DNA from: Candidatus Bathyarchaeia archaeon
GTDB taxonomy: Archaea; Thermoproteota; Bathyarchaeia; Bathyarchaeales; Bathycorpusculaceae
Reading direction: 5' to 3'
DNA length: 33,851 nt
Assembly (NCBI GenBank): GCA_049512935.1
Contig: JBEKWR010000022.1
Span: 1 to 33,851 of the forward strand
Positions 1,866-29,676 of this stretch are shown here, in pieces. Below the pieces are notes generated by a model, which was given only the letters and a program-made list of their open reading frames with translations, ran no database searches and was not told the origin of the DNA. How positions within the stretch are numbered: position 1 is the first letter of the stretch; every line of letters starts with the position of its first letter. A program made the position numbers and the translations under genes.

Positions 1866-2138
1866 TCAACAGTTCAAAAGCCGCTCGATTTGGTTTTTTG
1901 TTAAATCGTGAACAAACAACTGCTTCTGCCTCGAAGTGGCACCGCTTACAATCTCAACTTTGGCATGCAAAAGCTTTGAAAACTCTTTCGAAATTTTTTT
2001 GTTTACTTTTCCCTTGACGGGTTCTTCTGTGCTGTGGACAACGATTTCTTCTCCGTCAAGCTCTACTTTGAATTTTGGGGAGTTGGGTTTGACAAAAATG
2101 GTGATGATTGTGCCATCTTTGGTTTCTTTGATGCTCAT
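1866..2138 (-). CDS. yggU: DUF167/UPF0235 (YggU) family protein
   Basis: IFVKPNS...EEPVKGKVN...VEIVSGATSRQK motif; ATG at 2138 overlaps the topoisomerase stop (ATGA), so the track's 40-aa N-terminal extension is unlikely. Confidence 0.9.
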   Translation of the reverse strand: MSIKETKDGTIITIFVKPNSPKFKVELDGEEIVVHSTEEPVKGKVNKKISKEFSKLLHAKVEIVSGATSRQKQLFVHDLTKNQIERLLNC

Positions 2139-3805
2139 GCGGTTATGCACTCGGCTGCCTGCGCTTGCGCCTTGTTGCTTTGTAGTGCCCAGCTGAACTT
2201 GTTGCGGAGGGTTTTGGGGTAGAATTTTTCGATGTCGAACTTTACTTTTTTCGCCCATTTCACGTAAGCCGTCGGGTCAATGTACGACTTCAGCGAAGTG
2301 CCCAAGTTGTACTCTTTGGTGAGTTTCGTGAGGTTTACGTCGAGTTCAGCTTTAGCTATGCGTTTTTCAAGCGCTTCAGTTTTTTTGCCAGCAGCCTTCT
2401 TAACCTGCAGCTGCGCCTCAAGAGCCTTGAGGTTGGCTTCCTTCTTCTCCAACCGCTGATCAAAGGTTGGGGGTATTTTCTTTTTATGGTTGGCAACAAC
2501 CGCGACTTCATAATTGGCAATCTTTGCATGGTATGTTTTCACGTAATCTTGTGAATCTTTCGTGACTGGTTCGTTTTCCAATGGTTGTTGCCTTTTGAGA
2601 GCGTCTTCAAGTGTAGACGTACACTTCCACGTGCGAAACACTTTCGCAGTTAGTTTGGGCATCTTTTCTGAGAGGAATCTTGAGACTTTTTTGGAGTCGA
2701 CGCCTTCGAAAAGGTAATCTTTGCTGGACTCCATTAAGCTTCGGATGTTCTGGATGATTCCAGGCGGCGCGGATACGTCTTTTTCCCATCTGACGCTGTC
2801 TTTGCCGAGGAAGTCAAAGTGGATTTTGCCGTCCTCAGGGAAGCTGATGTGTTCTTTCCTAAGTGTAATCGCGCCCACCGTGTCTGCCTCGTCTGGGTCT
2901 TTTTCGTCGCCGACCCTCATGTTGACCGCGAAAATCAGCCAGGAAACCGTCGCAACCTTCCGCCTCGACTCATCCTTGTCGTCGAGGTTCCGAAGAATGT
3001 GCTGCTCAATGGTTCTGATTTGTTTGCCGAGGGTTTCGGCTTTCTGGAACTTTTCCTTCTCGCGGTTCTGCTTCAGAAACGCGGTGTCGCTGAACCAGAC
3101 GTACTTGATTTTGCCCGTAAGCTTGTCTTCCCACTTCGCCACGTACATCTTGTCGGGTTCCCAAACAACCCCTTTCCATTGTCCCGCTGGAACAGGCGCG
3201 TCAGGAGGTAAGTTCAAAACGATGTCCTGCTCGCTTGGCCCGTTCTTCCATTTTCCGCGCTGCGGATGATCGCCGCGACCAGCAAAAAGGCAAGATGGCT
3301 CAGCAGTCCAGTTGGCAATCTCCAGCCGTTGCCCATCGACGTCTGCGTAACCGAACTTTTCTTTGAATTCCAGTCGACGGATTTTGCGTTCTTCAGCTTG
3401 TCGCTTTTTGACTTCTTTGGTTAAGGCTTCTTTCTTTGCTTTTTCTGTTTCGATAAAGTTGCAGACTTGGCTGAAGTCGATTTCGTCGGCTTCGCAATTG
3501 GCGCTATGGTTTTCAGAAGGATGTACGATGCTGCCCAAGTAGCTTGGGACAAATGAGTCTAAGAAGCCTGCGGAAGGGTTCTCTTTCTTTAGTTCGCTGA
3601 GGAACTCCTTCATGAAGTTGAGTTTGAAAACTTTGTCGGGCGGGGACACGGTGGACAGGCTCTTTCTGGTCCATGCAACCGCCATCTGCTCGGTTTTAGG
3701 CGTCAGTTTTAGGGTTTGACCCTTGATTTTGACGTTGAAGCCTTTGTAATCGTAAACTGGAACGAATATGCCGTTATGCTTCAGGCTTTTCATAACGTGT
3801 CGCAT
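2135..3805 (-). CDS. DNA topoisomerase IB (eukaryote-like type)
   Basis: EPSCLFAGRGDHPQRGKWK; catalytic residues in MRVGDEKD, FLGKDSVR, AKVFRT, ANHKK and LGTSLKSYIDP; coiled-coil linker before the catalytic Tyr. Confidence 0.96.
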   Translation of the reverse strand: MRHVMKSLKHNGIFVPVYDYKGFNVKIKGQTLKLTPKTEQMAVAWTRKSLSTVSPPDKVFKLNFMKEFLSELKKENPSAGFLDSFVPSYLGSIVHPSENHSANCEADEIDFSQVCNFIETEKAKKEALTKEVKKRQAEERKIRRLEFKEKFGYADVDGQRLEIANWTAEPSCLFAGRGDHPQRGKWKNGPSEQDIVLNLPPDAPVPAGQWKGVVWEPDKMYVAKWEDKLTGKIKYVWFSDTAFLKQNREKEKFQKAETLGKQIRTIEQHILRNLDDKDESRRKVATVSWLIFAVNMRVGDEKDPDEADTVGAITLRKEHISFPEDGKIHFDFLGKDSVRWEKDVSAPPGIIQNIRSLMESSKDYLFEGVDSKKVSRFLSEKMPKLTAKVFRTWKCTSTLEDALKRQQPLENEPVTKDSQDYVKTYHAKIANYEVAVVANHKKKIPPTFDQRLEKKEANLKALEAQLQVKKAAGKKTEALEKRIAKAELDVNLTKLTKEYNLGTSLKSYIDPTAYVKWAKKVKFDIEKFYPKTLRNKFSWALQSNKAQAQAAECITA

Positions 3806-20233: not shown

Positions 20234-20554
20234 TCAACTGGCTGTTTGTAACAGCGGCTCAAGTTCTCTTATTCGGTTACGGACCATTTCAACCAGTTGT
20301 TTTCTGAGCCTCTCGCCCGAAATCCCCCTTCTAATGAAGCACATCTTGTTAGCCAACTCCTTATCGCCTAACGTGTCATCTATCCACCTCTGAAAGTCGC
20401 CGCGGGGATAATGAAAAAGAACAGAATTCAGATCGATTGTTTCTAATTTCTGGGCAAAATCAGCGAGACTAGTCGCAGTTATTCCCGTGTAACCTTCTTC
20501 TGTTGAGAAGTGGAATCCACGTTCAAACTGGACATTACCTAAGATTTTATGCAT
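20234..20554 (-). CDS. DUF5752 family protein
   Basis: FHF...GYTG..ATSL.DF...L..ID..S..FH..RGDFQRWI..TLGD.ELA motif; start is ATG 20554 or in-frame ACG 20581. Confidence 0.8.
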   Translation of the reverse strand: MHKILGNVQFERGFHFSTEEGYTGITATSLADFAQKLETIDLNSVLFHYPRGDFQRWIDDTLGDKELANKMCFIRRGISGERLRKQLVEMVRNRIRELEPLLQTAS

Positions 20555-20679
20555 GCTGGTTTCAAGATTTGTTTGGCTCGTAAAATCACCGCCTAAATCA
20601 CGGCTAAGCCAATAATATCTATTTGTGACTACTCGCTGAAACCACAAACGGTGACATGGACCGTGTTGTAGTTCGCAAG

Positions 20680-22407
20680 TTATGTGGAGATTACGCCTTT
20701 TGACCCGTCGATTGTCACTTTTTGGCCGTTGTAAAGCAGTTGGCAAGCGTTTTGAATGTTTGTTACAGCGGGGATCCCGTACTCCCTTGACACGACCGCG
20801 CCGTGCGATAGGATTCCGCCTGTTTCAGTGATTAAACCGCCGATTTTGCTGAACACGGGAGTCCATCCTGGATCGGTTCTGGGAACAACAAGTATTTCGC
20901 CAGCCTGCACATCTCCGATGTCTTCGACACGGTTTAGGACTCTGATTGTTCCAGTTAGCTTGCCTTGGCTAGCGGGGATTCCATGCAGGATGCAGCCGGT
21001 GTTTTTTTCTTTTTCATCCAGTTCATTGGCGCCTTGGATGAACTTGGCTGGAGTCACGTTTTCATACTTTAGAAATTCATCCTTGCGGCTTGAAACTGAC
21101 TCGTGAATTCTGCCTCTGCTTTCAGGGCGTTTTCCGTTGACCAAGGATCGCACTTCGTTTTTCGTGAGGAAAAACACGTCTGAAGCTTCCTCTAGGAATC
21201 CTTGTTTCTGCAGGTTTCTTCCGATATCCATGTAGATTCGGCGGTTCATGGTGATCCATCTGTCAAGGTTGTACCGTTGGTTCTCTCGGAAAACAATGTA
21301 TTTCCTTGCGAACCCAAGAATCGTCGAGAGCAGTTGCCATTCGAACCAGCCCAAGGGGCGTTTCTTTATTCGGCGTTCGATTCTGCTTGTTTGAAGCTTC
21401 TGCTCCGTTTTTTGTTGACGTTTCGCTGGGGCTTCATCTTGGACGAGTGATTTCAAGATGTCGAATACGTATTCGGGCGCTTCGTTCCACCGCGGATAGT
21501 AGGGTTCACGGGTGAAGCCTCGGACTCCGAAGTCGCGCATGAACAACTTCAACTCTTGCTTAAATTCTTCTAACTGCGGATTATCATCTGCCACGAGCAA
21601 CAGGAAGATTCGGTTTGAAGGCGTTTCCAGGACAAATGATTTCGTAGCGGTTGAAGTTCGCACTGTGCTTGCGAGTTTGAGGATGCGGTCGTTCATTTCG
21701 CTTGTTTTATGCTCGAGCCCAGATATCAAAACGGGGTAAACTTCAGCTGCTTCTTCTCCTATGAAGCGTCCGAGCAAGTACTGCGCTATCAGGTTCATGC
21801 CGATGTTATGGACTGGAATTCCGTATCTTACCAAACGGAAGTGCCCGATCATCAGCCGATCTAATTCTGCAGCCAGCTCCAGCAGGGCTGCGGGGTTGCC
21901 TTCCACGTCAATTTTTGATATTCTCGAATCAAAACTTTGGTAAAACGGTTCGAACTTGGTTTTGCTCCATTTTTCGTATGCCGACTTCGTTTTTGTGATT
22001 GAACCTTCATCATCGTAGAGCATGACGCGGATCTCAGCCAGAACTCTCTTGCTTAGTCTGAAGGGCTGTTTTTTCATGGTTTGCTTGCCGTAGGGTCCGC
22101 TGCCTTCCATGAAGTAGTTCAGGATGTCATCGTTGCGGACGAAGGGCGGAATCTCGTATTCAACCTTGCGTTTGAGAACTTCCAAGTTAAAGTATGCGTG
22201 ACCGTGGTACAGCCTCAAAAGCTTGTCAGTTTCTCCGTTGCCTGGAGACGAATATCCCATGATTCCGTTTAGTTCAATATTCACGATCTGTGTCAGTTGG
22301 TCTCCGAGTAAATCGAAAAACAAAGGGGAAACAGGGTCGTTCCAGTAGTCATCTGAATAGCCTCTTGTCCAAATGACTTCCTTCTCAGAGCTGCCCGAAT
22401 TATTCAT
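20680..22407 (-). CDS. PEP-utilising phosphotransferase subunit: acceptor-binding domain plus phospho-His swivel domain, no ATP-grasp (RPH / phenylphosphate synthase A-like)
   Basis: WTR...D...DPVSPL, GHAYFN, FGVRG...PRW.E.P, RENQR; C-terminal GIPASQG, TDPGWTPVF, GGILSHGAVVSREYGIPAV. Confidence 0.85.
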   Translation of the reverse strand: MNNSGSSEKEVIWTRGYSDDYWNDPVSPLFFDLLGDQLTQIVNIELNGIMGYSSPGNGETDKLLRLYHGHAYFNLEVLKRKVEYEIPPFVRNDDILNYFMEGSGPYGKQTMKKQPFRLSKRVLAEIRVMLYDDEGSITKTKSAYEKWSKTKFEPFYQSFDSRISKIDVEGNPAALLELAAELDRLMIGHFRLVRYGIPVHNIGMNLIAQYLLGRFIGEEAAEVYPVLISGLEHKTSEMNDRILKLASTVRTSTATKSFVLETPSNRIFLLLVADDNPQLEEFKQELKLFMRDFGVRGFTREPYYPRWNEAPEYVFDILKSLVQDEAPAKRQQKTEQKLQTSRIERRIKKRPLGWFEWQLLSTILGFARKYIVFRENQRYNLDRWITMNRRIYMDIGRNLQKQGFLEEASDVFFLTKNEVRSLVNGKRPESRGRIHESVSSRKDEFLKYENVTPAKFIQGANELDEKEKNTGCILHGIPASQGKLTGTIRVLNRVEDIGDVQAGEILVVPRTDPGWTPVFSKIGGLITETGGILSHGAVVSREYGIPAVTNIQNACQLLYNGQKVTIDGSKGVIST

Positions 22408-22502
22408 GGTTGATTTTCCTCTTATTAGCAGGCGTGAGTGCGGTATCTTGTTTGAGGCACTACGTATTTAAGCCTAAGTGGAATCTCGCAAGCTTCTCTA
22501 GC

Positions 22503-23504
22503 TCATGCGTGTTTTGCCCTCAGAGTTTCAAACGTCCCGTAGCCGCCGGAGACGCCGTCCATTTCGAAAGTTCCGAAGGATTGTGTAAGGATGGAGATCT
22601 GTCCCTTTTCGTCGCTGAACGGAATGGGAACTGCGGGTCCAGCTTTGCCTTCTAACGTGTGCGTGGAGCCTTCTTCATCGAGGAGTTCCAGTTTTGAGCT
22701 GACGGGAAAGATTTCGCTGCTGAACTGCTGGTCCAGAACCCGAATTCTCGTGATCGGGATGTTCCTTCCGTTTTTGAAAATGAATCCTCCCGTCGACACC
22801 TTTCCGTCTTCGGCGACGATTGCTGCAGGGTTCACGGCAAGATCTTCAGAGAACCAGACGACGTAGTAGAGCCAGCTTCCTATTCCCGTCCAGTCGCGGA
22901 CACCGTGGGTGTGGTCCCTCTGCCCGAGTACATTTGCTACTTTGAACGTGCTGTCGCCCAGAACAACGTCGCCTTGGACTTTGGCGATTTGCTCCCAGTG
23001 AACGTCGCCTGCTTTTTTTCCAAGCTCACGGCTCTCAGCGCTCATATGGCTGCTGTACTCATAGACGCGGTTTATAGGTTTGAACGTTAGATTCATTGAG
23101 GCTTTCTGAATGCCCAACACCACGGAAGGTTGGGCTCGTAGCTTAAGCAGGTCATGCGGGTTCTTCAGCAGCATCATGTTGCCACTGAAACTGTAGTGCC
23201 ACGTGCCATCGGGGTTCCTGTGGTGTGTCATGCCGTTAACGCGCAGGTCAGCGGGATAGCTGGAGTCTCCAATTCTTTCCGTGGCTTGGTGGATTGCTAC
23301 TTTTCCATCGGGGAGAAAAAGAATGAAAAACGTCATGCCTTCTTTTTTGTTCGGTTTGAAACCCAGCCTTGTGACGCCGCCGAACTCTTGTTCTTTTGAG
23401 TAGAAAACGAAGTAATACGATTCATTCCACTCCGTGTGAGACCCCGCTGGGTGATTTAAGGGTTCAGAATCCAAGTTGAAGTCAAGATTCGTTTCTTTCT
23501 TCAT
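22503..23504 (-). CDS. CrtC/tocopherol-cyclase-like beta-barrel protein (paralog 1)
   Basis: WNESYYF, RLGFKPN, HWEQ, GQRDHTHGVRDW motifs; SD AGGAG before GTG/ATG at 23507/23504. Confidence 0.65.
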   Translation of the reverse strand: MKKETNLDFNLDSEPLNHPAGSHTEWNESYYFVFYSKEQEFGGVTRLGFKPNKKEGMTFFILFLPDGKVAIHQATERIGDSSYPADLRVNGMTHHRNPDGTWHYSFSGNMMLLKNPHDLLKLRAQPSVVLGIQKASMNLTFKPINRVYEYSSHMSAESRELGKKAGDVHWEQIAKVQGDVVLGDSTFKVANVLGQRDHTHGVRDWTGIGSWLYYVVWFSEDLAVNPAAIVAEDGKVSTGGFIFKNGRNIPITRIRVLDQQFSSEIFPVSSKLELLDEEGSTHTLEGKAGPAVPIPFSDEKGQISILTQSFGTFEMDGVSGGYGTFETLRAKHA

Positions 23505-23601
23505 CACGCGTTCTCCTTCTGGTTTGCTTTTACCCAATTTTTAAATACCAAGACAGCCGTAACTGGTTACCTATTAACTTTCAGGCTTAAGTGATTTTGC
23601 A

Positions 23602-24471
23602 ATGTGCAAGTGGTGCATGAAACACGGGGCAGGCGGAAAGTGGTACCTAAACGCGAAGAACTACTCCAACGAGCTTGCGGAACATGAGAATCTTGAAGCC
23701 TATCTTGAGGAGCAGTGGAGAAACTTCGAAACGGTCTACATCCGAAAGATGATGGGTATGTCTTCTATAGGTCTTGGCTACAAACTTAAAATGCCAATCA
23801 TCGGGCGCGTTGTCCGCTGGAAAGCCGAAAGCATGATCCATTCTGAAAGCAAGAACAGGAATCCAGTCAGGGCAGACGGGCATTTTGGGCAGGTGATTCC
23901 GATTGAAGAAGCCAAGCTTATCATGATGAACTTGGCGGCTGAACCTATAGCTCAGAACTACTGCATGTGCAGGATGATGCAGAGAGGAGTCAAGGATGTC
24001 TGCTGCATCAACTTCGGGTGCCTATCAAACGTGATCGAGAAGCTTCCACGGTTTATTCCTGAAAAGAGCAAGTTTAAACTGGGCAGGGAGGAGGCGGTTG
24101 CAGCTTTAGATGAGCAGAATAAGAAGGGAAGAATCGCGACTGTTTGGTTCCAACCCGTGCCTTACGTCAACGCTATTTGCTCGTGCGAGGTTCCTCAATG
24201 TGGAGGGCTTAGACTTAGAACGGACTTTGGCCTGAACGCAGTTTACAAAGCAGAATACGTCGCCAGCGTTGACCCTGACCTGTGCCAAGCTTGCAAGTCA
24301 TGCGTTTCCTATTGCCAATTCGGAGCCGTAAAGTTTTCACCCACCCTGAAAAGAGTGACAATTGATCAAAACAAATGCTTCGGCTGCGGGCTTTGCAGAG
24401 ACCGCTGCAAATTCGGCGCGATAAAGCTGATTCCAAGGGAAACTGTTCCTGGAATTGCCACCATGTATTAG
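23602..24471 (+). CDS. Multi-Cys Fe-S protein with a C-terminal 2x[4Fe-4S] ferredoxin domain
   Basis: CQACKSCVSYC and CFGCGLCRDRC; additional CKWC, CMCR, CC and CSC....C motifs. Confidence 0.9.
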   Translation: MCKWCMKHGAGGKWYLNAKNYSNELAEHENLEAYLEEQWRNFETVYIRKMMGMSSIGLGYKLKMPIIGRVVRWKAESMIHSESKNRNPVRADGHFGQVIPIEEAKLIMMNLAAEPIAQNYCMCRMMQRGVKDVCCINFGCLSNVIEKLPRFIPEKSKFKLGREEAVAALDEQNKKGRIATVWFQPVPYVNAICSCEVPQCGGLRLRTDFGLNAVYKAEYVASVDPDLCQACKSCVSYCQFGAVKFSPTLKRVTIDQNKCFGCGLCRDRCKFGAIKLIPRETVPGIATMY

Positions 24472-24483
24472 CATGAGAGGCTG

Positions 24484-24744
24484 TTGATGATGAAGAAGAC
24501 AAAAATCAAAATTGACTATTCGAAATGTGGAAACGCGACTGGCGGCATCGATCCCAGGGAATGCAGCGTGTGCCTCAAGGTTTGTGACCCGGCGATTTTC
24601 CTCCGCCACGAGGCTTTCAACGTCGAAGAGTCAAATCGCAATGACCCGCAATTCTGGCAGATAACTGCTGTTTGGCTGGATCTGTGCACTCGATGTGGAA
24701 AATGCGTGGCTGCGTGCCCTCAGAAAGCCATAACAGTGTCATGA
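24484..24744 (+). CDS. Small 2x[4Fe-4S] ferredoxin
   Basis: C-x11-CSVCLKVC and CTRCGKCVAACP; SD GAGG upstream. Confidence 0.88.
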   Translation: MMMKKTKIKIDYSKCGNATGGIDPRECSVCLKVCDPAIFLRHEAFNVEESNRNDPQFWQITAVWLDLCTRCGKCVAACPQKAITVS

Positions 24745-24836
24745 ACAAGTTCCTACAACGGGCAAATCGGCATCTTCGAAATGATCGCATTTCTTTCGCC
24801 GATAACTCCAAGCAAGTTTACTGATTATTTACACAC

Positions 24837-25733
24837 CTAAGGTTTTGGGTGGGTGAAGAGGAACTCTATGAGTCCTGTTCCTTTTTCTCCTGTCGCGACG
24901 GATTCGTGTACAGCCATGCCCTCAAAGAGTTCGGTGGTTCCCTTGGGGAAGCTTCTGGAGAACTTGAAGAAGCTTTTTGGCGAAATCAACTTGGAAATGA
25001 ATGTGTCCACTCTTCCATCCTCGTAATGTATCGTAGTCGAGGCTCCGACTGGGTTCTTTCCGTCTTCGTCGTCATATTTTATCTGAAGGTCAATCTGAGA
25101 AGCCGCCGCCTGTTTACTCGCGGATGACAACCCGCCTGACACGTAAGAGGCGCCGTTCACAGTGTCTTTTCTCAAGCCGACAGCGTACGTTTCAAACTGG
25201 GCGTGGAGTGCAAACCAGTTTTCTATGAACCAGTCTCGAGGCCCCCAGCTCTTGTCCCGCTGGCTGAACCCGTGGATTCTGATTTTTGTCCCATCGGAAA
25301 GGGCTGCTTCTCCTTCGACGATGCCTGACTGCTCAAAGTGTCCCTTCCATGAGGTTCCGCTGCCTTTCCCGAAATCAAACGGTGGAAAACGGGCTTCCCA
25401 TTTGAGGTGCACGTTGAGGTTTTGGTCGGCGACGGTGATGTCCCATTTCCGCAAGGGTTCAACAAGCTTGTACGTCAGGGCGCCATCTGACAGAAGACTC
25501 GATGATTGCTCGTCTGTGAGGGTTTGCTCTTTATAGTGTATGTTCAGTTTGTCCTCGTGGAATAGGGCAAGGATGAATTCTCCTTTCTTCTGGTTGGGTA
25601 GAATCCCTATGGTGCTGAATCCCGAGGTTTTGGTTTGTGCGTCAACAAAATTGAAGTAGTAACTTTCTCTCCAGTCTAAACTGTCTTCGGCAACATGAAG
25701 GTAATCGTCGGTTTTCTTGATAGAACTCAACAT
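24837..25733 (-). CDS. CrtC/tocopherol-cyclase-like beta-barrel protein (paralog 2)
   Basis: WRESYYFNF, IGILPN, GHFEQSG, SQRDKSWGPRDW; similar motif order to 22503-23504. Confidence 0.65.
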   Translation of the reverse strand: MLSSIKKTDDYLHVAEDSLDWRESYYFNFVDAQTKTSGFSTIGILPNQKKGEFILALFHEDKLNIHYKEQTLTDEQSSSLLSDGALTYKLVEPLRKWDITVADQNLNVHLKWEARFPPFDFGKGSGTSWKGHFEQSGIVEGEAALSDGTKIRIHGFSQRDKSWGPRDWFIENWFALHAQFETYAVGLRKDTVNGASYVSGGLSSASKQAAASQIDLQIKYDDEDGKNPVGASTTIHYEDGRVDTFISKLISPKSFFKFSRSFPKGTTELFEGMAVHESVATGEKGTGLIEFLFTHPKP

Positions 25734-25758
25734 CGTCTCATCCTCGCTGGCGTTTTGG

Positions 25759-26937
25759 TTATTTGGGCAAAAGATACATTATCGGGTCTTTCTCCTTCAG
25801 GAACGGGAGAGTTTTCATCTTTATGATTTTTCTCTTGATTCTTGAGAAGGCAGGGTCCTCGTTGGCTTTCATGAAGATGGGCAGGTACTCGTCGAGAACT
25901 GGTTTGGCGAGGCTCCATTGGATTTTATCTGTGACACCGACGCAGTCCGTGTACCTGGCGAAGCATCTCCAGTAGGCGGTGGCGCCTGAGATAAGCAGTT
26001 GCGACCTGTCCATTTGGGCGAATTTCATGTAGAGTTCAGCCTGAGCGTTGTCTGCTGCTTCGGCGTATGCGGGTAACTCGTCCATTCCAACTGGAACCAC
26101 TTTGTCTCCGCTTTTCTTGTAAGCCGCGATGCCAGTCACGAGTTTAGAGTACTCGCCTGGGTTGACAGTCATTGTGCCGATGTCGTTGAAGGTGGTTTTC
26201 GCGTTTTTAAGCGTCATGGCGACGCCTAAGCTTGAAGAGGGAAGTTTAGCTTCAGTTGCCGACCACGGAAGCCACAGCCTGTCTTTTCCATCATAAAGAT
26301 TCGTGTATTCCATAAGCACAAGGTCCTCACTGTTTTCAATCGGGTAAGGTCCGTGGTTTACGATTTTGGCTCTTGCCTCGCATTCATCGATAAAAGCGTA
26401 TAGGTCGATTGAGCCAAGGACTCTCCTCACTTTCTTGGTTTGCTCCGCTGTGACGGGTTGAACGTGGTCTTTCACCCAACTGATCGACTCGTCGCCGAGA
26501 CCTACGTTTTTCTTGCCTGAAGCAGCAACGGTCGGCTTTCCAGAGGCGAAGTAGCTTGTTGCAAGGCTGTGCCATTTTTCAAGCATCCATTTCCACTGTT
26601 CCCTTTTCTCAGCGGGCTCCTTTGCAGGGTCGCCTTCGCATTTGTTGTAGATTGTGCCCATGCGCGCAAGCGAGTAGTACATCCAGAGGTACGAAATCGA
26701 AAGCGCCTGCACGGGCGAAAGCAGGCTTCTGCTTTTCTTAGCCAATTCTTCCGGGGTGATTGTGTCCCAGACCTGCTTCATGACGCCGTAGAGTTCGTGG
26801 TAGGTTTGGTAGAACCCGAGACTGATGTAAGCGTTAACAGGGAACAGTTTTGACTCAAGCAGGCTTCTTTCGAGAACTATGTCGGAGAAGACCTTGCTTA
26901 GATGAGTGATGAGTTCGTTGATTTCTTCAACCTTCAT
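25759..26937 (-). CDS. Hypothetical soluble protein (392 aa)
   Basis: Long ORF upstream of paralog 2; ERSLLESKLFPVNAYI, YAFIDECEAR...NHGPY and LWLPWS motifs. Confidence 0.85.
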   Translation of the reverse strand: MKVEEINELITHLSKVFSDIVLERSLLESKLFPVNAYISLGFYQTYHELYGVMKQVWDTITPEELAKKSRSLLSPVQALSISYLWMYYSLARMGTIYNKCEGDPAKEPAEKREQWKWMLEKWHSLATSYFASGKPTVAASGKKNVGLGDESISWVKDHVQPVTAEQTKKVRRVLGSIDLYAFIDECEARAKIVNHGPYPIENSEDLVLMEYTNLYDGKDRLWLPWSATEAKLPSSSLGVAMTLKNAKTTFNDIGTMTVNPGEYSKLVTGIAAYKKSGDKVVPVGMDELPAYAEAADNAQAELYMKFAQMDRSQLLISGATAYWRCFARYTDCVGVTDKIQWSLAKPVLDEYLPIFMKANEDPAFSRIKRKIIKMKTLPFLKEKDPIMYLLPK

Positions 26938-27071
26938 ATCCCTAACCCCATTGCTTGGAAACCATATTCAGGTTTGAAGTAATAAGATTTGGCATCAGGC
27001 ATTTTTTCGGGCAAATCTAATATCTAACTTCGGCTGATTAGGAGGCTACCGATTGGCTGGCAGGATAGAAA

Positions 27072-27425
27072 ATGAAGGTCATAGGCAGCGGAAGGATAAC
27101 TTTGAACGTCTCGGCGAAGGGTGAACTTCGGACGGTTTCTTCGATTCAGGACGTGATCAACCTTTGGAAAGAGGGCGCTGACGGCAAAATCGTCATTGTT
27201 GAAGACGCGGGGACAACCACTCTCGGACCGATTCTTCCGAAGCTTGCAGGGGTAGTCTGCAAAACTGGCGGTATAGGTTCACATCTCGCGATTGTGTCGC
27301 GTGAATTCTGCATTCCTGCTTTAATGGGTACAAAAATCGACACAGATGAGCCTCTGAACAGGCGTCAAGCGATGATTCAGCCCAACGGGAACAAAGATGG
27401 GCTGCTGATACTTTCTGATTTATAG
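27072..27425 (+). CDS. Stand-alone PEP-utiliser mobile (phospho-His) domain protein
   Basis: DAGTTTLGPIL, GVVCKTGGIGSHLAIVSREFCIPALMG. Confidence 0.9.
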   Translation: MKVIGSGRITLNVSAKGELRTVSSIQDVINLWKEGADGKIVIVEDAGTTTLGPILPKLAGVVCKTGGIGSHLAIVSREFCIPALMGTKIDTDEPLNRRQAMIQPNGNKDGLLILSDL

Positions 27426-27539
27426 CCTAATTCATTAATGAAATCAAACCGCACTTTATTGTTGAATAATCGAGGAGTTATTGTGGTTAGTTTTTTATTT
27501 CCCAGTTGCAGTAATATGTGAGCATAAAGGGTAGTACCT

Positions 27540-28385
27540 GTGGGCAAACTCGGCGGTTTCCTTCGATTGATCAGGCCAATGAACTGCATAGTGATGAGTT
27601 TCGCAGTTCTTGTTGGAGCCAGCCTAACAGGTTTCGGCAATCTTCATTGGCTGAATTTGGTTTACGGAGCAGTAACCGCGTTCACTTTGACTGGGGCTGC
27701 AATGGCGGTCAACGACTACTACGATTTTGACATAGACAAAATAAATGAACCAAAGCGCCCACTCCCGAGCGGCGCAGTTTCGATGAGAGAGGCACTGGTG
27801 TTGACAGGCGTTCTAACGGCGATCGGTCTGGTCTTCGCCTTCGTCATAAGCCTCTATTGCCTCCTGTTTGCCTTTGCAGCTTGGGTCATCATGGTCGCTT
27901 ACACGACCGTTGGAAAGCGAAGCGGGTTCGCTGGCAACTTGCTGGTTAGTGCATGTGTCGCCGCGCCTTTTCTGTACGGTAGCCTAGTGGCTGTCAACAC
28001 CATCAGGTTTAACATCTTGCTTTTCGCGTCAATGGCGTTTCTTTCAAATACGGGTCGGGAAATTGCAAAGGGCATCGTTGACGTGCAAGGCGACAGCGCG
28101 CATAACATCAGGACTCTTGCTGTGTCCTTCGGAGACAGAAAGGCTGCTTTCGCAGCGGCTGCCTGCTTTGTTTTTGCTGTCTGCCTGTCTCCTCTTCCTG
28201 TGATTTTCAATTTAGTTTCCATATGGTTTGTTCCGTTTGTGCTGGTTACCGACGTTGGCTTGGTTTGGTGTTCAGTATCGTTGATAAGGAATTCTTCAAG
28301 AGATAATGCGCGTCAAATAAAGAAGATTGTTCTTTTCTTATTCGTTTTCGGTTTGCTTTCATTCATTTTCGGGACATTCAGGTGA
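27540..28385 (+). CDS. Digeranylgeranylglyceryl phosphate synthase (UbiA family)
   Basis: LIRPMN, NDYYDFDIDKINEPKRPLPSG, GNLLVS, GREIAKGIVDVQGD. Confidence 0.9.
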   Translation: MGKLGGFLRLIRPMNCIVMSFAVLVGASLTGFGNLHWLNLVYGAVTAFTLTGAAMAVNDYYDFDIDKINEPKRPLPSGAVSMREALVLTGVLTAIGLVFAFVISLYCLLFAFAAWVIMVAYTTVGKRSGFAGNLLVSACVAAPFLYGSLVAVNTIRFNILLFASMAFLSNTGREIAKGIVDVQGDSAHNIRTLAVSFGDRKAAFAAAACFVFAVCLSPLPVIFNLVSIWFVPFVLVTDVGLVWCSVSLIRNSSRDNARQIKKIVLFLFVFGLLSFIFGTFR

Positions 28386-28392
28386 CAAGGAC

Positions 28393-29106
28393 ATGGCTGA
28401 GCCTGAAATCGTGATGAATTTAGGTCTACTCGGCTTATGTTACGTGTACATAATCGCCATAATCCTGATAACAAGCAAGATTAAAGATCGTATACCTGCA
28501 AATCTTTCCCGTAAATTTCTGCACATTATGATAGGCAACTTTATTTTTATTATACCATTTTTCACGCTCACAACGTTTCCGCTCTGCTTTCCCTTCTTCG
28601 TGGCTGCCCCTTTCATTTTGGTTACCTTCTTGTTTTCTCCCCTGTCTCCAGTTGACTTAAGCAGTAAAATTAGCGGGTTGGCTGAGGTCACAGGCGGAGG
28701 TCACAAGTTTGGGCTGGTTTATTACGCGATTTCTTACACTGTTCTAGCCTTATTCTTTTCAACGAAGCCGTACATTATTGCGGCAGGCATTTTGCCGATG
28801 GCGTTCGGTGACGCCGCAGCTTCTTTGGTTGGACAAAAAATTGGACGACATAAATACAACATTTTCGGTACGAAGAGCTTTGAGGGGTCAATGGCGATGT
28901 TTGCCATTTGCATTTCTGGTCTAATGGTTTGTCTTCTATTTTTCTCGCGTCTTTACCCAATCTCAATCCCGACCTTCGCGCTGGCTTCTTTAGGCGTCGC
29001 CTCAGTGGCAACGGTTTGCGAAGCGCTCACCCCGAAAGGCTTTGACAACTTGACCGTTCCGTTGTTCAGCGCCGCCGTATTTCTGCTGTTGATAGGAGGA
29101 ATATAA
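28393..29106 (+). CDS. CTP-dependent polyprenol/phytol/dolichol kinase (SEC59/DGK1/VTE5 family)
   Basis: SRKFLHIMIG, GLVYY, FGDAAASLVG, KSFEGS, E...P.GFDNLTVP. Confidence 0.88.
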   Translation: MAEPEIVMNLGLLGLCYVYIIAIILITSKIKDRIPANLSRKFLHIMIGNFIFIIPFFTLTTFPLCFPFFVAAPFILVTFLFSPLSPVDLSSKISGLAEVTGGGHKFGLVYYAISYTVLALFFSTKPYIIAAGILPMAFGDAAASLVGQKIGRHKYNIFGTKSFEGSMAMFAICISGLMVCLLFFSRLYPISIPTFALASLGVASVATVCEALTPKGFDNLTVPLFSAAVFLLLIGGI

Positions 29107-29676
29107 TTGAAGCTAGTAATCATTGACGGTTTAGACGGCTGCGGGAAAAGCACTCAAGCACATCTTATGCTGCAGTCACTGAAAAAAATGAATAAGACCG
29201 CTTGCCTGCGTGTTCACCCAGAAATTGACAACTGGTTCGGTCTCAAGGCGCGGGCTTACTTGTATTCGAAAGGTAAAAGCGCGCATTTCGCCTCAGCCCT
29301 ATTCTACATGGCAGATGTCATTCATTCAATACTCCTGTATTCATGGAGAGACGCGGACTTCGTTATTTTTGTCAGATACTTAATGGGAACTGCTTACTTG
29401 CCGTCGCCTTTAGACACGGTTGCATACAACTTCTTCGCCTCGGTAGTTCCAAAGTCAAACAGCATGTTCTTTCTTGACGTTAACCCTGAGGAAGCAGCCT
29501 CTCGAATCGCCAAAAACCGCAAACAGACTGAAATGTTCGAAAACCTTGGGGCTTTGAAAAAAGTCAGGGCTAAGGCTCTTTCGTTAACCCGTTTTGATAA
29601 GTGGATCATTATCGATTCGAACAAGCCTGCTCTCGAAGTGGCTTCAGCGTTAAAGACAAATTTGTTCGCCGAATAA
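29107..29676 (+). CDS. Thymidylate-kinase-like P-loop NMP kinase (divergent)
   Basis: IDGLDGCGKSTQ P-loop, FLDV.PEEA..RI, EMFE; VRYLMGTAY replaces the canonical DRY motif; starts immediately after the kinase stop. Confidence 0.75.
   Translation: MKLVIIDGLDGCGKSTQAHLMLQSLKKMNKTACLRVHPEIDNWFGLKARAYLYSKGKSAHFASALFYMADVIHSILLYSWRDADFVIFVRYLMGTAYLPSPLDTVAYNFFASVVPKSNSMFFLDVNPEEAASRIAKNRKQTEMFENLGALKKVRAKALSLTRFDKWIIIDSNKPALEVASALKTNLFAE

Follow-up and report, generated by a model that had tools for sequence, protein, structure and literature searches.

This report concerns a run of ten adjacent genes on contig JBEKWR010000022.1 (assembly GCA_049512935.1) of a Candidatus Bathyarchaeia archaeon; the window analysed is the whole 33,851-nucleotide stretch in which they lie. 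As an earlier note made from the letters alone had described, the genes form four alternating units between 20680 and 29676, and all of their open reading frames (ORFs) were found in place (Table 1, with domain calls made from Pfam and NCBIfam models with curated cut-offs). Seven of the genes, coding for two dikinase components (PEPut575 and swivel117), two double-barrel proteins (barrel-1 and barrel-2), a 392-aa protein (O392) and two iron-sulphur (Fe-S) proteins (FeS289 and fdx86), recur in other genomes. The best reading of this set is that of a variant system joining two known kinds, namely the kinase/lyase pair 25-HSK/25-PSL (the latter a 25-phosphosteroid lyase) and the two-component dikinases, with PEPut575 and barrel-1 as its module A and swivel117, O392 and barrel-2 as its module B.

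Table 1. The ten genes of the run, with positions in the window and the basis of each call
Gene and proposed role	Position	Strand	Basis
PEPut575, HpeH/PpsA-like dikinase component without ATP-grasp (module A kinase)	20680-22407	-	PF00391, NCBIfam partial matches
barrel-1, DUF7065/DUF7064 double barrel, candidate phospho-lyase of module A	22503-23537	-	Pfam
FeS289, N-domain and C-terminal 2x[4Fe-4S] ferredoxin domain	23602-24471	+	Fer4 families
fdx86, small 8-Cys ferredoxin	24484-24744	+	Fer4 families
barrel-2, 25-PSL homolog, candidate phospho-lyase of module B	24837-25733	-	profile, fold
O392, 392-aa protein, proposed acceptor-binding/phosphotransfer partner of swivel	25759-26937	-	fusions, analogy
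swivel117, stand-alone phospho-histidine swivel domain, divergent from O392	27072-27425	+	PF00391
UbiA prenyltransferase, DGGGP-synthase-like; neighbour outside the conserved system	27540-28385	+	PF01040
membrane protein; neighbour; homologs source-named dolichol/phytol/polyprenol kinase	28327-29106	+	source names only
thymidylate-kinase-like (TMK-like) P-loop kinase; neighbour, pairs with membrane protein	29107-29676	+	PF02223

A scan of species-representative genomes returned 134 relatives of O392; 80 loci with flanks of 10 kb were retained, and the window's genes were counted in these by tblastn. O392 is present in 80/80 loci, barrel-2 in 79 (always directly downstream of O392) and swivel117 in 66, where it is nearly always divergent from and adjacent to O392; an ORF-based swivel count of 51/80 was too low, because antisense ORFs displaced the swivel ORF, and was replaced by the tblastn figure. 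FeS289 and fdx86 occur in 46/80 loci, in varied orientation and on either side of the core, while barrel-1 orthologs are found in 13/80 and PEPut575 in 10/80. The earlier note had treated all ten genes as a single cluster. The core does recur in these 80 loci of other genomes, and for seven of the ten genes the arrangement goes beyond chance; the DGGGP-synthase-like, membrane and TMK-like genes, however, recur in two loci only, L005 and L006, which are the closest relatives of this locus (85-89% identical), and at L006 they are 6 kb distant. Clustering of the ORFs in these loci further revealed a stand-alone PPDK_N ATP-grasp protein (~330 aa) directly beside the swivel gene in 33/80 loci, so that the dikinase is complete there; these 33 loci have Asgard or "uncultured archaeon" titles and none has a TACK title.

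The distribution of the system is uneven. O392 was found in 3/151 genomes of the class, in 0/15 of the family and in 0/5 of the same genus, and the interval from ~19.4 to 29.9 kb has no blastn DNA match in the five congeners except for ~190 bp inside the UbiA gene, at a divergence near the limit of blastn. The module is patchy and accessory. No tRNA gene or composition break bounding the region was found. Other lineages show variants of their own: in loci L068-L073 (Jord-/Freyarchaeia) O392 is duplicated, the order being O392, barrel, swivel, O392, and as many as five paralogous genes for ~535-aa B12-binding radical S-adenosylmethionine (radical-SAM) proteins lie around the set. In many of the Thorarchaeota loci (L030-L066), barrel-2 is followed by genes for a 575-aa alpha/beta hydrolase, a methyltransferase, a histone-deacetylase-family protein, a URO-D-family protein and PolX, a run that could be lineage synteny or could hold further pathway genes.

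The proposal that the phosphoenolpyruvate (PEP)-utilising protein and the small phospho-histidine protein represent a split dikinase of the rifampin-phosphotransferase (RPH) and phenylphosphate-synthase kind was borne out by Pfam, NCBIfam and a profile match to RPH. PF00391 matches PEPut575 at residues 501-571 (83.6 bits), a segment bearing the GGILSHGAVVSRE motif, which places the swivel histidine within about 50 residues of the C-terminus as in two-component and RPH-type dikinases. The protein matches only the C-terminal two thirds of the 860-900-aa NCBIfam models for PEP synthase, RPH and PigC, with PEP-synthase scores far under the cut-offs, and its profile aligns with Listeria RPH (5fbs/5hv1, E 3e-47) over query positions 234-578, covering part of the rifampin-binding (RIF-binding) domain and the swivel domain. 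PEPut575 therefore corresponds to the HpeH/CreH/PpsA component of two-component dikinases. Its homologs in four TACK loci are 906-911 aa long and carry an N-terminal PPDK_N domain, detected by Pfam in two of them and by a custom profile in all four; the 575-aa form, which has no PPDK_N, starts exactly where the ATP-grasp of the longer homologs ends. PEP-utilizers_C, the PEP/pyruvate-binding TIM barrel, gave no match in PEPut575, swivel117 or O392. swivel117 itself is a PF00391 domain (42.7 bits) whose histidine, His71 in the motif GG.GSHLAIVSRE, is invariant in 17/17 orthologs. Excerpts of PMC12167813 describe how two-component small-molecule dikinases (HpeHI, CreHI, PpsAB) use a phospho-histidine intermediate, the histidine being loaded by a separate ATP-grasp protein (HpeI/PpsB), and how HpeH alone moves phosphate between small molecules. 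That a hydroxyl group of some hydrophobic substrate is phosphorylated, as the earlier note had it, is retained as the best reading of these dikinase-family matches.

Both barrels belong to the DUF7065/7064 family. In barrel-1, DUF7064 (45.5 bits, cut-off 24.7) and DUF7065 (43.5 bits, cut-off 27) both score above their cut-offs; in barrel-2, DUF7065 does so (56.3 bits) and DUF7064, at 19.6 bits, falls below its 24.7. NCBIfam's Rv3169_fam gives 35.6 and 50.9 bits for the two barrels, below a cut-off of 150. Comparison of the two profiles by hhalign (probability 99.5, E 1.7e-22) indicates that barrel-1 and barrel-2 are paralogs. The family includes Rv3169 of Mycobacterium tuberculosis, which presumably forms a pair with Rv3168. 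Orthologs of barrel-1 are 55-83% identical and adjoin the dikinase gene in all 10 of the 13 loci where one was found.

It is barrel-2 that points to a chemistry. A profile of 28 orthologs matches 25-PSL in the PDB (9fzn, 9g2i and 9g4c, entries dated January 2026) with an E value of 1.1e-7, and the motifs YYFN, F.Q.G..SG and RD+SWG.R are common to both proteins, as seen in the HMMER alignment only. When the AlphaFold2 model of barrel-2 (pLDDT 93.9) was searched with Foldseek, the five best matches were all 25-PSL (E 2.9e-13, TMq 0.76, identity ~15%), followed by fungal Diels-Alderases, AttH (2ich) and kievitone hydratase (7a0t) with E values from 2e-10 to 5e-8. By profile and by predicted fold, barrel-2 is thus a relative of 25-PSL, which acts on an isoprenoid side chain and is its nearest solved relative. 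The earlier note had likened the barrels to cyclases and hydratases such as CrtC and tocopherol cyclase; the AttH/CrtC-type double-barrel fold was recovered by Foldseek, but neither barrel has a CrtC or tocopherol cyclase family match in Pfam at E<=0.01, and no solved tocopherol cyclase is among the Foldseek matches listed. The AttH/CrtC-type hydratases and the fungal decalin-forming Diels-Alderases (2ich, 7a0t, 7e5t, 6kbc) share the fold and act on hydrophobic, often prenylated substrates; they rank below 25-PSL, and no kinase is known to act with them.

According to excerpts of PMC8449060 and PMC11061730, in which the gene for the lyase is still unidentified, the ATP-dependent kinase 25-HSK makes 25-phospho-steroids and 25-PSL is the enzyme proposed to release phosphate from them; acting together, the two dehydrate a tertiary alcohol at C25 to an alkene at the expense of ATP. 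The steroid C25 phosphoester is described in the former source as having about the group-transfer potential of ATP, and 25-HSK as fully reversible.

The 392-aa protein had been called an orphan, a description that no longer applies: 231 homologs were found at E<=0.001, 40-90% identical and all without names, in Bathyarchaeia, Methanomethylicia, Thor-, Loki-, Hod- and other Asgard archaea, and a wide profile search of 1.84 billion representatives gave 218 relatives. O392 has no match in Pfam (E<=10), in NCBIfam or among PDB sequences, and its AlphaFold2 model (pLDDT 89.2) has no match in the PDB (best Foldseek E 0.32; best Z 4.8 with the exhaustive aligner VIA) and no usable match in the ESM Atlas. 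A part in phosphotransfer is proposed from its company. A swivel domain is fused N-terminally to the O392 domain in 4/18 longer relatives scanned, two of these fusions, from Gordonia and Citricoccus, being named "PEP-utilizing enzyme". Across 36 members, down to ~20% identity, R92, R189, G196 and P197 are invariant, within the motif E.R.G..DHGPY; that the conserved arginines fit a phosphate site is only suggestive. O392 was also tried as a diverged RIF-binding or ATP-binding dikinase domain and rejected (hhalign probability 0.1), as were the C-terminal extensions of two long relatives, P0321 and P0380, tried as barrels (0.1-0.3). A complex prediction for O392 with barrel-2, run without controls, scored 0.00 against a mark of 0.32 and counts neither way. 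At L120 and L121 (genomes G125 and G149), which belong to other Bathyarchaeia, distant paralogs of swivel and O392 (23-26% identity) adjoin a full-length RPH-like dikinase, and the stretches retrieved contain no barrel match; members of the O392 family therefore occur without the lyase as well.

In FeS289, Fer4 families match residues 220-276 only. Eight cysteines (C2, C5, C121, C123, C135, C193, C195 and C200), two histidines and two CxxCxxCxxxC motifs are invariant across 22 orthologs, and the N-domain, which holds the eight cysteines and both histidines, has no known relative: PDB matches cover the ferredoxin domain only, and for the N-domain the ESM Atlas gave nothing but unnamed clusters, mostly bacterial. 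The gene for fdx86, with motifs C-x11-C-x2-C-x3-C and C-x2-C-x2-C-x3-CP, starts 12 bp after FeS289. A full-length FeS289 ortholog lies elsewhere in 5/5 checked genomes whose locus flanks (10 kb) lack the gene. At L119, FeS289 is divergent beside a full-length dikinase gene and barrel-1, with no O392 on the 9.6-kb contig, and the four TACK loci with a 906-911-aa dikinase share this layout; FeS289 therefore goes with either module.

The same parts are found together in bacteria. In a tblastn search of plasmids, 9 records carried O392-like genes and 14 carried barrel-like ones, the two sets overlapping, and the parts were confirmed with custom profiles. Plasmid pR8L1 of Rhodococcus sp. 008 carries, in a single run, genes for an O392-like protein, a swivel, a hypothetical protein, a barrel (E 1e-33) and a PPDK_N protein, with alcohol and aldehyde dehydrogenase genes upstream. 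On plasmid RPME01 of Methylibium petroleiphilum PM1 (L122, 480093-483884 of the record) the order is barrel, O392-like, hypothetical gene, swivel; transposases lie upstream of this set, which is itself 4 kb upstream of B12-binding, AMP-binding, MeaB and mutase genes. These neighbours presumably resemble the 2-hydroxyisobutyryl-CoA mutase set of the methyl tert-butyl ether (MTBE)/tert-butyl-alcohol pathway; if so, this is a further setting with a tertiary alcohol. Barrels also occur with other kinases: in Rhodococcus ZPP an 880-aa dikinase gene is directly followed by a barrel gene, single-chain dikinases of 880-911 aa likewise stand beside barrels at L013, L023, L029, L064 and L119, and a Mycobacterium branderi plasmid has a gene for an APH-type "phosphotransferase family protein" followed directly by a barrel gene, within a P450/ferredoxin/CoA-transferase/dehydrogenase cluster. 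The barrel family thus goes with three kinds of kinase, as split PPDK_N/swivel/O392 sets, single-chain dikinases and an APH-type phosphotransferase each adjoin barrels.

Taken together, these observations lead us to favour, with modest confidence, a system of two phosphorylate-then-eliminate modules, each an ATP-dependent dehydration, with a Fe-S redox partner. In module B, swivel117 would bring a phosphoryl group on His71 to O392, which would bind the acceptor, the hydroxyl of a hydrophobic, possibly isoprenoid-type tertiary alcohol; barrel-2 would then expel phosphate from the resulting phosphoester to leave an alkene, so that overall energy would be spent to dehydrate an alcohol that does not otherwise react. 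Module A would perform the same chemistry with the RPH/HpeH-type PEPut575 and barrel-1, and FeS289 with its ferredoxin may catalyse or feed a redox reaction of the substrate or of the product, such as reducing the alkene. In the Asgard relatives the stand-alone ATP-grasp protein would load the swivel histidine from ATP, while in this genome the phosphoryl group could come from PEP synthase in trans or from some other phosphorylated molecule. The homologies, the linkage of the genes, the fusions and the invariant histidine are observations, whereas the order of the steps, the parts played by O392 and the Fe-S proteins, the chemistry of the barrels and the class of substrate are inferences. A bolder version, which we hold to be unlikely, makes of this a relay with a new-fold acceptor subunit, O392, present in anaerobic archaea of peat and sediment and in bacteria by way of catabolic plasmids; it would remove unreactive, probably tertiary isoprenoid-type hydroxyls (alcohol to alkyl phosphate to alkene) ahead of a Fe-S/ferredoxin redox step, and where the ATP-grasp is missing would use a donor other than a dedicated ATP-grasp or run in reverse, conserving the energy of the phosphoester.

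The likeness to 25-HSK/25-PSL of Sterolibacterium denitrificans lies both in the parts, a kinase and a double-barrel protein to which barrel-2 is most closely related, and in the logic of phosphorylating an unreactive alcohol and expelling phosphate to give an alkene. The kinase there is of APH type, whereas here it would be a phospho-histidine dikinase in pieces, and the window system is archaeal, adds the 392-aa component and the Fe-S pair, and shares only ~15% identity in the barrel. HpeHI/CreHI/PpsAB and RPH (5fbs, 5hv1) resemble it in that PEPut575 has the RIF-binding-like domain and the C-terminal swivel histidine domain, and in that the ATP-grasp of the Asgard relatives, as with HpeI/PpsB, sits on a separate protein. 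They differ in that this genome yielded no ATP-grasp partner, in that the module B swivel is a protein of its own with the unrelated O392 in place of the RIF-binding-like domain, and in that what both modules are coupled to here is a lyase-like barrel, not a carboxylase. The view of the earlier note that this is not a described pathway is therefore half right: a kinase working with a phospho-lyase is on record from the anaerobic degradation of cholesterol, and two-component dikinases are likewise known, but the combination, O392 and the Fe-S partner were not found in literature searches.

Several observations weigh against two such dehydration modules. The largest gap concerns the ATP-driven step. 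In the genome itself (93% complete) PPDK_N was seen solely in an 822-aa ORF of PEP-synthase type (contig C7), five relatives have it only inside PEP-synthase-length or fused proteins, and within 10 kb it was not found at 43/80 loci (33 have the stand-alone form, 4 a fused one); a stand-alone ATP-grasp protein that could drive this step was not found in the genome. The profile of barrel-1 reaches 25-PSL only at E 0.45, and the protein has RDHTHGVR in place of the RD(R/K)SWG.R of 25-PSL and barrel-2, so that barrel-1 appears to be tied to 25-PSL through barrel-2 only. Since hydratases and Diels-Alderases have the same fold, phosphate elimination is not the sole possible chemistry. The proposed function of O392 as an acceptor-binding domain draws on analogy and on the fusions only. 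In eight Hermod-type loci O392 and the barrel are present and the swivel gene is missing from the flanks (a 161-aa gene upstream of O392 in these loci was considered as a swivel domain and rejected, having no swivel-profile and no Pfam match). In the class sample of 151 genomes, 4 were found to have FeS289 and 3 to have O392, and this genome alone had both, with FeS289 scored on no more than 16 candidates in each genome.

Among the alternatives, one that we consider unlikely but that has the most to commend it is that the dikinase parts phosphorylate peat phenolics, trapping or activating them as HpeHI, CreHI and PpsAB do, and that the barrels and Fe-S proteins change the aryl phosphate by a chemistry other than elimination. 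PEPut575 is indeed of the RPH/HpeH/PpsA lineage, and the window DNA turns up in peat and wetland metagenomes (with no RNA run among the sequencing runs listed). The Rhodococcus pyridinivorans swivel-O392 cluster, moreover, includes genes for a biotin/lipoyl protein and a 4-hydroxyphenylacetate-hydroxylase-like protein. A carboxylase or UbiD-type gene is, however, absent from the gene families recurring in the 80 archaeal loci; the closest relative of the barrel eliminates phosphate from an alkyl and not an aryl phosphate; and O392 is unrelated to the phenol-binding RIF-binding-like domain of HpeH, as the hhalign comparison above indicates.

The reading put forward in the earlier note, that the cluster activates or salvages isoprenoid alcohols or lipid fragments for the adjacent DGGGP-synthase, polyprenol-kinase and TMK-like genes and so feeds ether-lipid synthesis or remodelling, seems to us quite unlikely. 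The UbiA protein is a family member (PF01040, 152.8 bits) and the better of the two UbiA genes in the genome, but its DGGGP-synthase scores fall below the NCBIfam cut-offs (NF009523, 249.1 bits against 269; NF009521, 188.7 against 296). The membrane protein, for which the ATG at 28390 is a likelier start than 28327, has homologs named dolichol or phytol kinase by JGI and diacylglycerol/polyprenol kinase family by NCBI, but no Pfam match even at E<=10 and no NCBIfam match. The TMK-like protein matches PF02223 (E 3.4e-30), with a TIGR00041 score of 62 bits, below the cut-off of 83.25. Such names, the adjacency of the two gene sets here and in L005, and the isoprenoid side chain on which the nearest solved relative of barrel-2 works would all suit a link with lipids, as would the many B12-radical-SAM genes flanking the Jord/Freya loci, a class that includes archaeal lipid-modifying enzymes. 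Against this, the lipid-type genes accompany the core in the two close relatives only, at a distance in one of them, and the membrane/TMK-like pair is conserved without the module: it is found with no gap between its genes in 27/29 other Bathyarchaeia loci (L087-L113 among them), with a DGGGP-synthase-like UbiA gene upstream in 6, and no swivel gene lies beside the pair in the ~1.5-kb flanks of those loci. The membrane gene itself occurs in 46/151 genomes of the class and in 0/5 of the genus. A module as patchy and accessory as this one, with O392 in so few genomes of the class and none of the family, is therefore ill suited to core lipid synthesis, and bacteria, which are without ether lipids, have the same parts in catabolic plasmid clusters. 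The lipid genes look like chance neighbours, and the proposed link to ether-lipid synthesis was not upheld. The membrane and TMK-like proteins could on their own form a two-step salvage of prenols to prenyl diphosphates feeding ether-lipid synthesis; to our knowledge, genes for these archaeal salvage activities are not known.

Very unlikely, in our view, is a system that in genomes lacking the ATP-grasp is ATP-free or reversed, phosphate being passed between small molecules, or added to an alkene to form a high-energy phosphoester from which the swivel histidine would be charged. It would account for the restriction of ATP-grasp domains to PEP synthase in this genome, and to PEP-synthase-length or fused proteins in its relatives. 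It can also draw on the ability of HpeH alone to transfer phosphate between small molecules (PMC12167813, in excerpt) and on the near-ATP transfer potential of the steroid C25 phosphoester with its fully reversible kinase (PMC8449060, likewise). The Asgard and bacterial versions do have an ATP-grasp, however, and PEP synthase could load the swivel in trans.

That the genes are unrelated neighbours without a joint function is barely credible: the four alternating transcription units, and Fe-S genes and O392 that are not always together in the class sample, would allow it, but the pairing of O392 with the barrel in 79/80 loci and with the swivel in 66/80, the fusions and the joint occurrence of the same parts in bacteria contradict it for the O392/barrel-2/swivel core, while for the Fe-S pair it is possible.

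Downstream of PEPut575 lie a DUF5752 ORF (20234-20746), whose TTG start would overlap the 3' end of PEPut575 by 67 bases and for which a later ATG is likelier, and an AsnC gene; both were considered as members of the system and rejected, since neither is present in any of the 80 related loci. Elsewhere the gene content of the window is that of an archaeon; it includes an eRF1 gene and a gene for a eukaryote-type topoisomerase IB (2135-3805), which adjoins a small 'phage metallopeptidase' gene (PF18894, 3931-4335).

ATP-dependent dehydration by a kinase and a phospho-lyase is known so far from one bacterial sterol pathway. The present analysis ties this type of lyase to phospho-histidine dikinases of at least three architectures, in Asgard and TACK archaea and on the catabolic plasmids of bacteria, and removes as unsupported a tempting tie between this window and archaeal lipid synthesis. 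It offers a testable role for three families, O392, the N-domain of FeS289 and DUF7065/7064, with the Rhodococcus operon as a genetically tractable model. Phosphorylation followed by elimination may thus be a general, and testable, way of attacking inert alcohols without oxygen.

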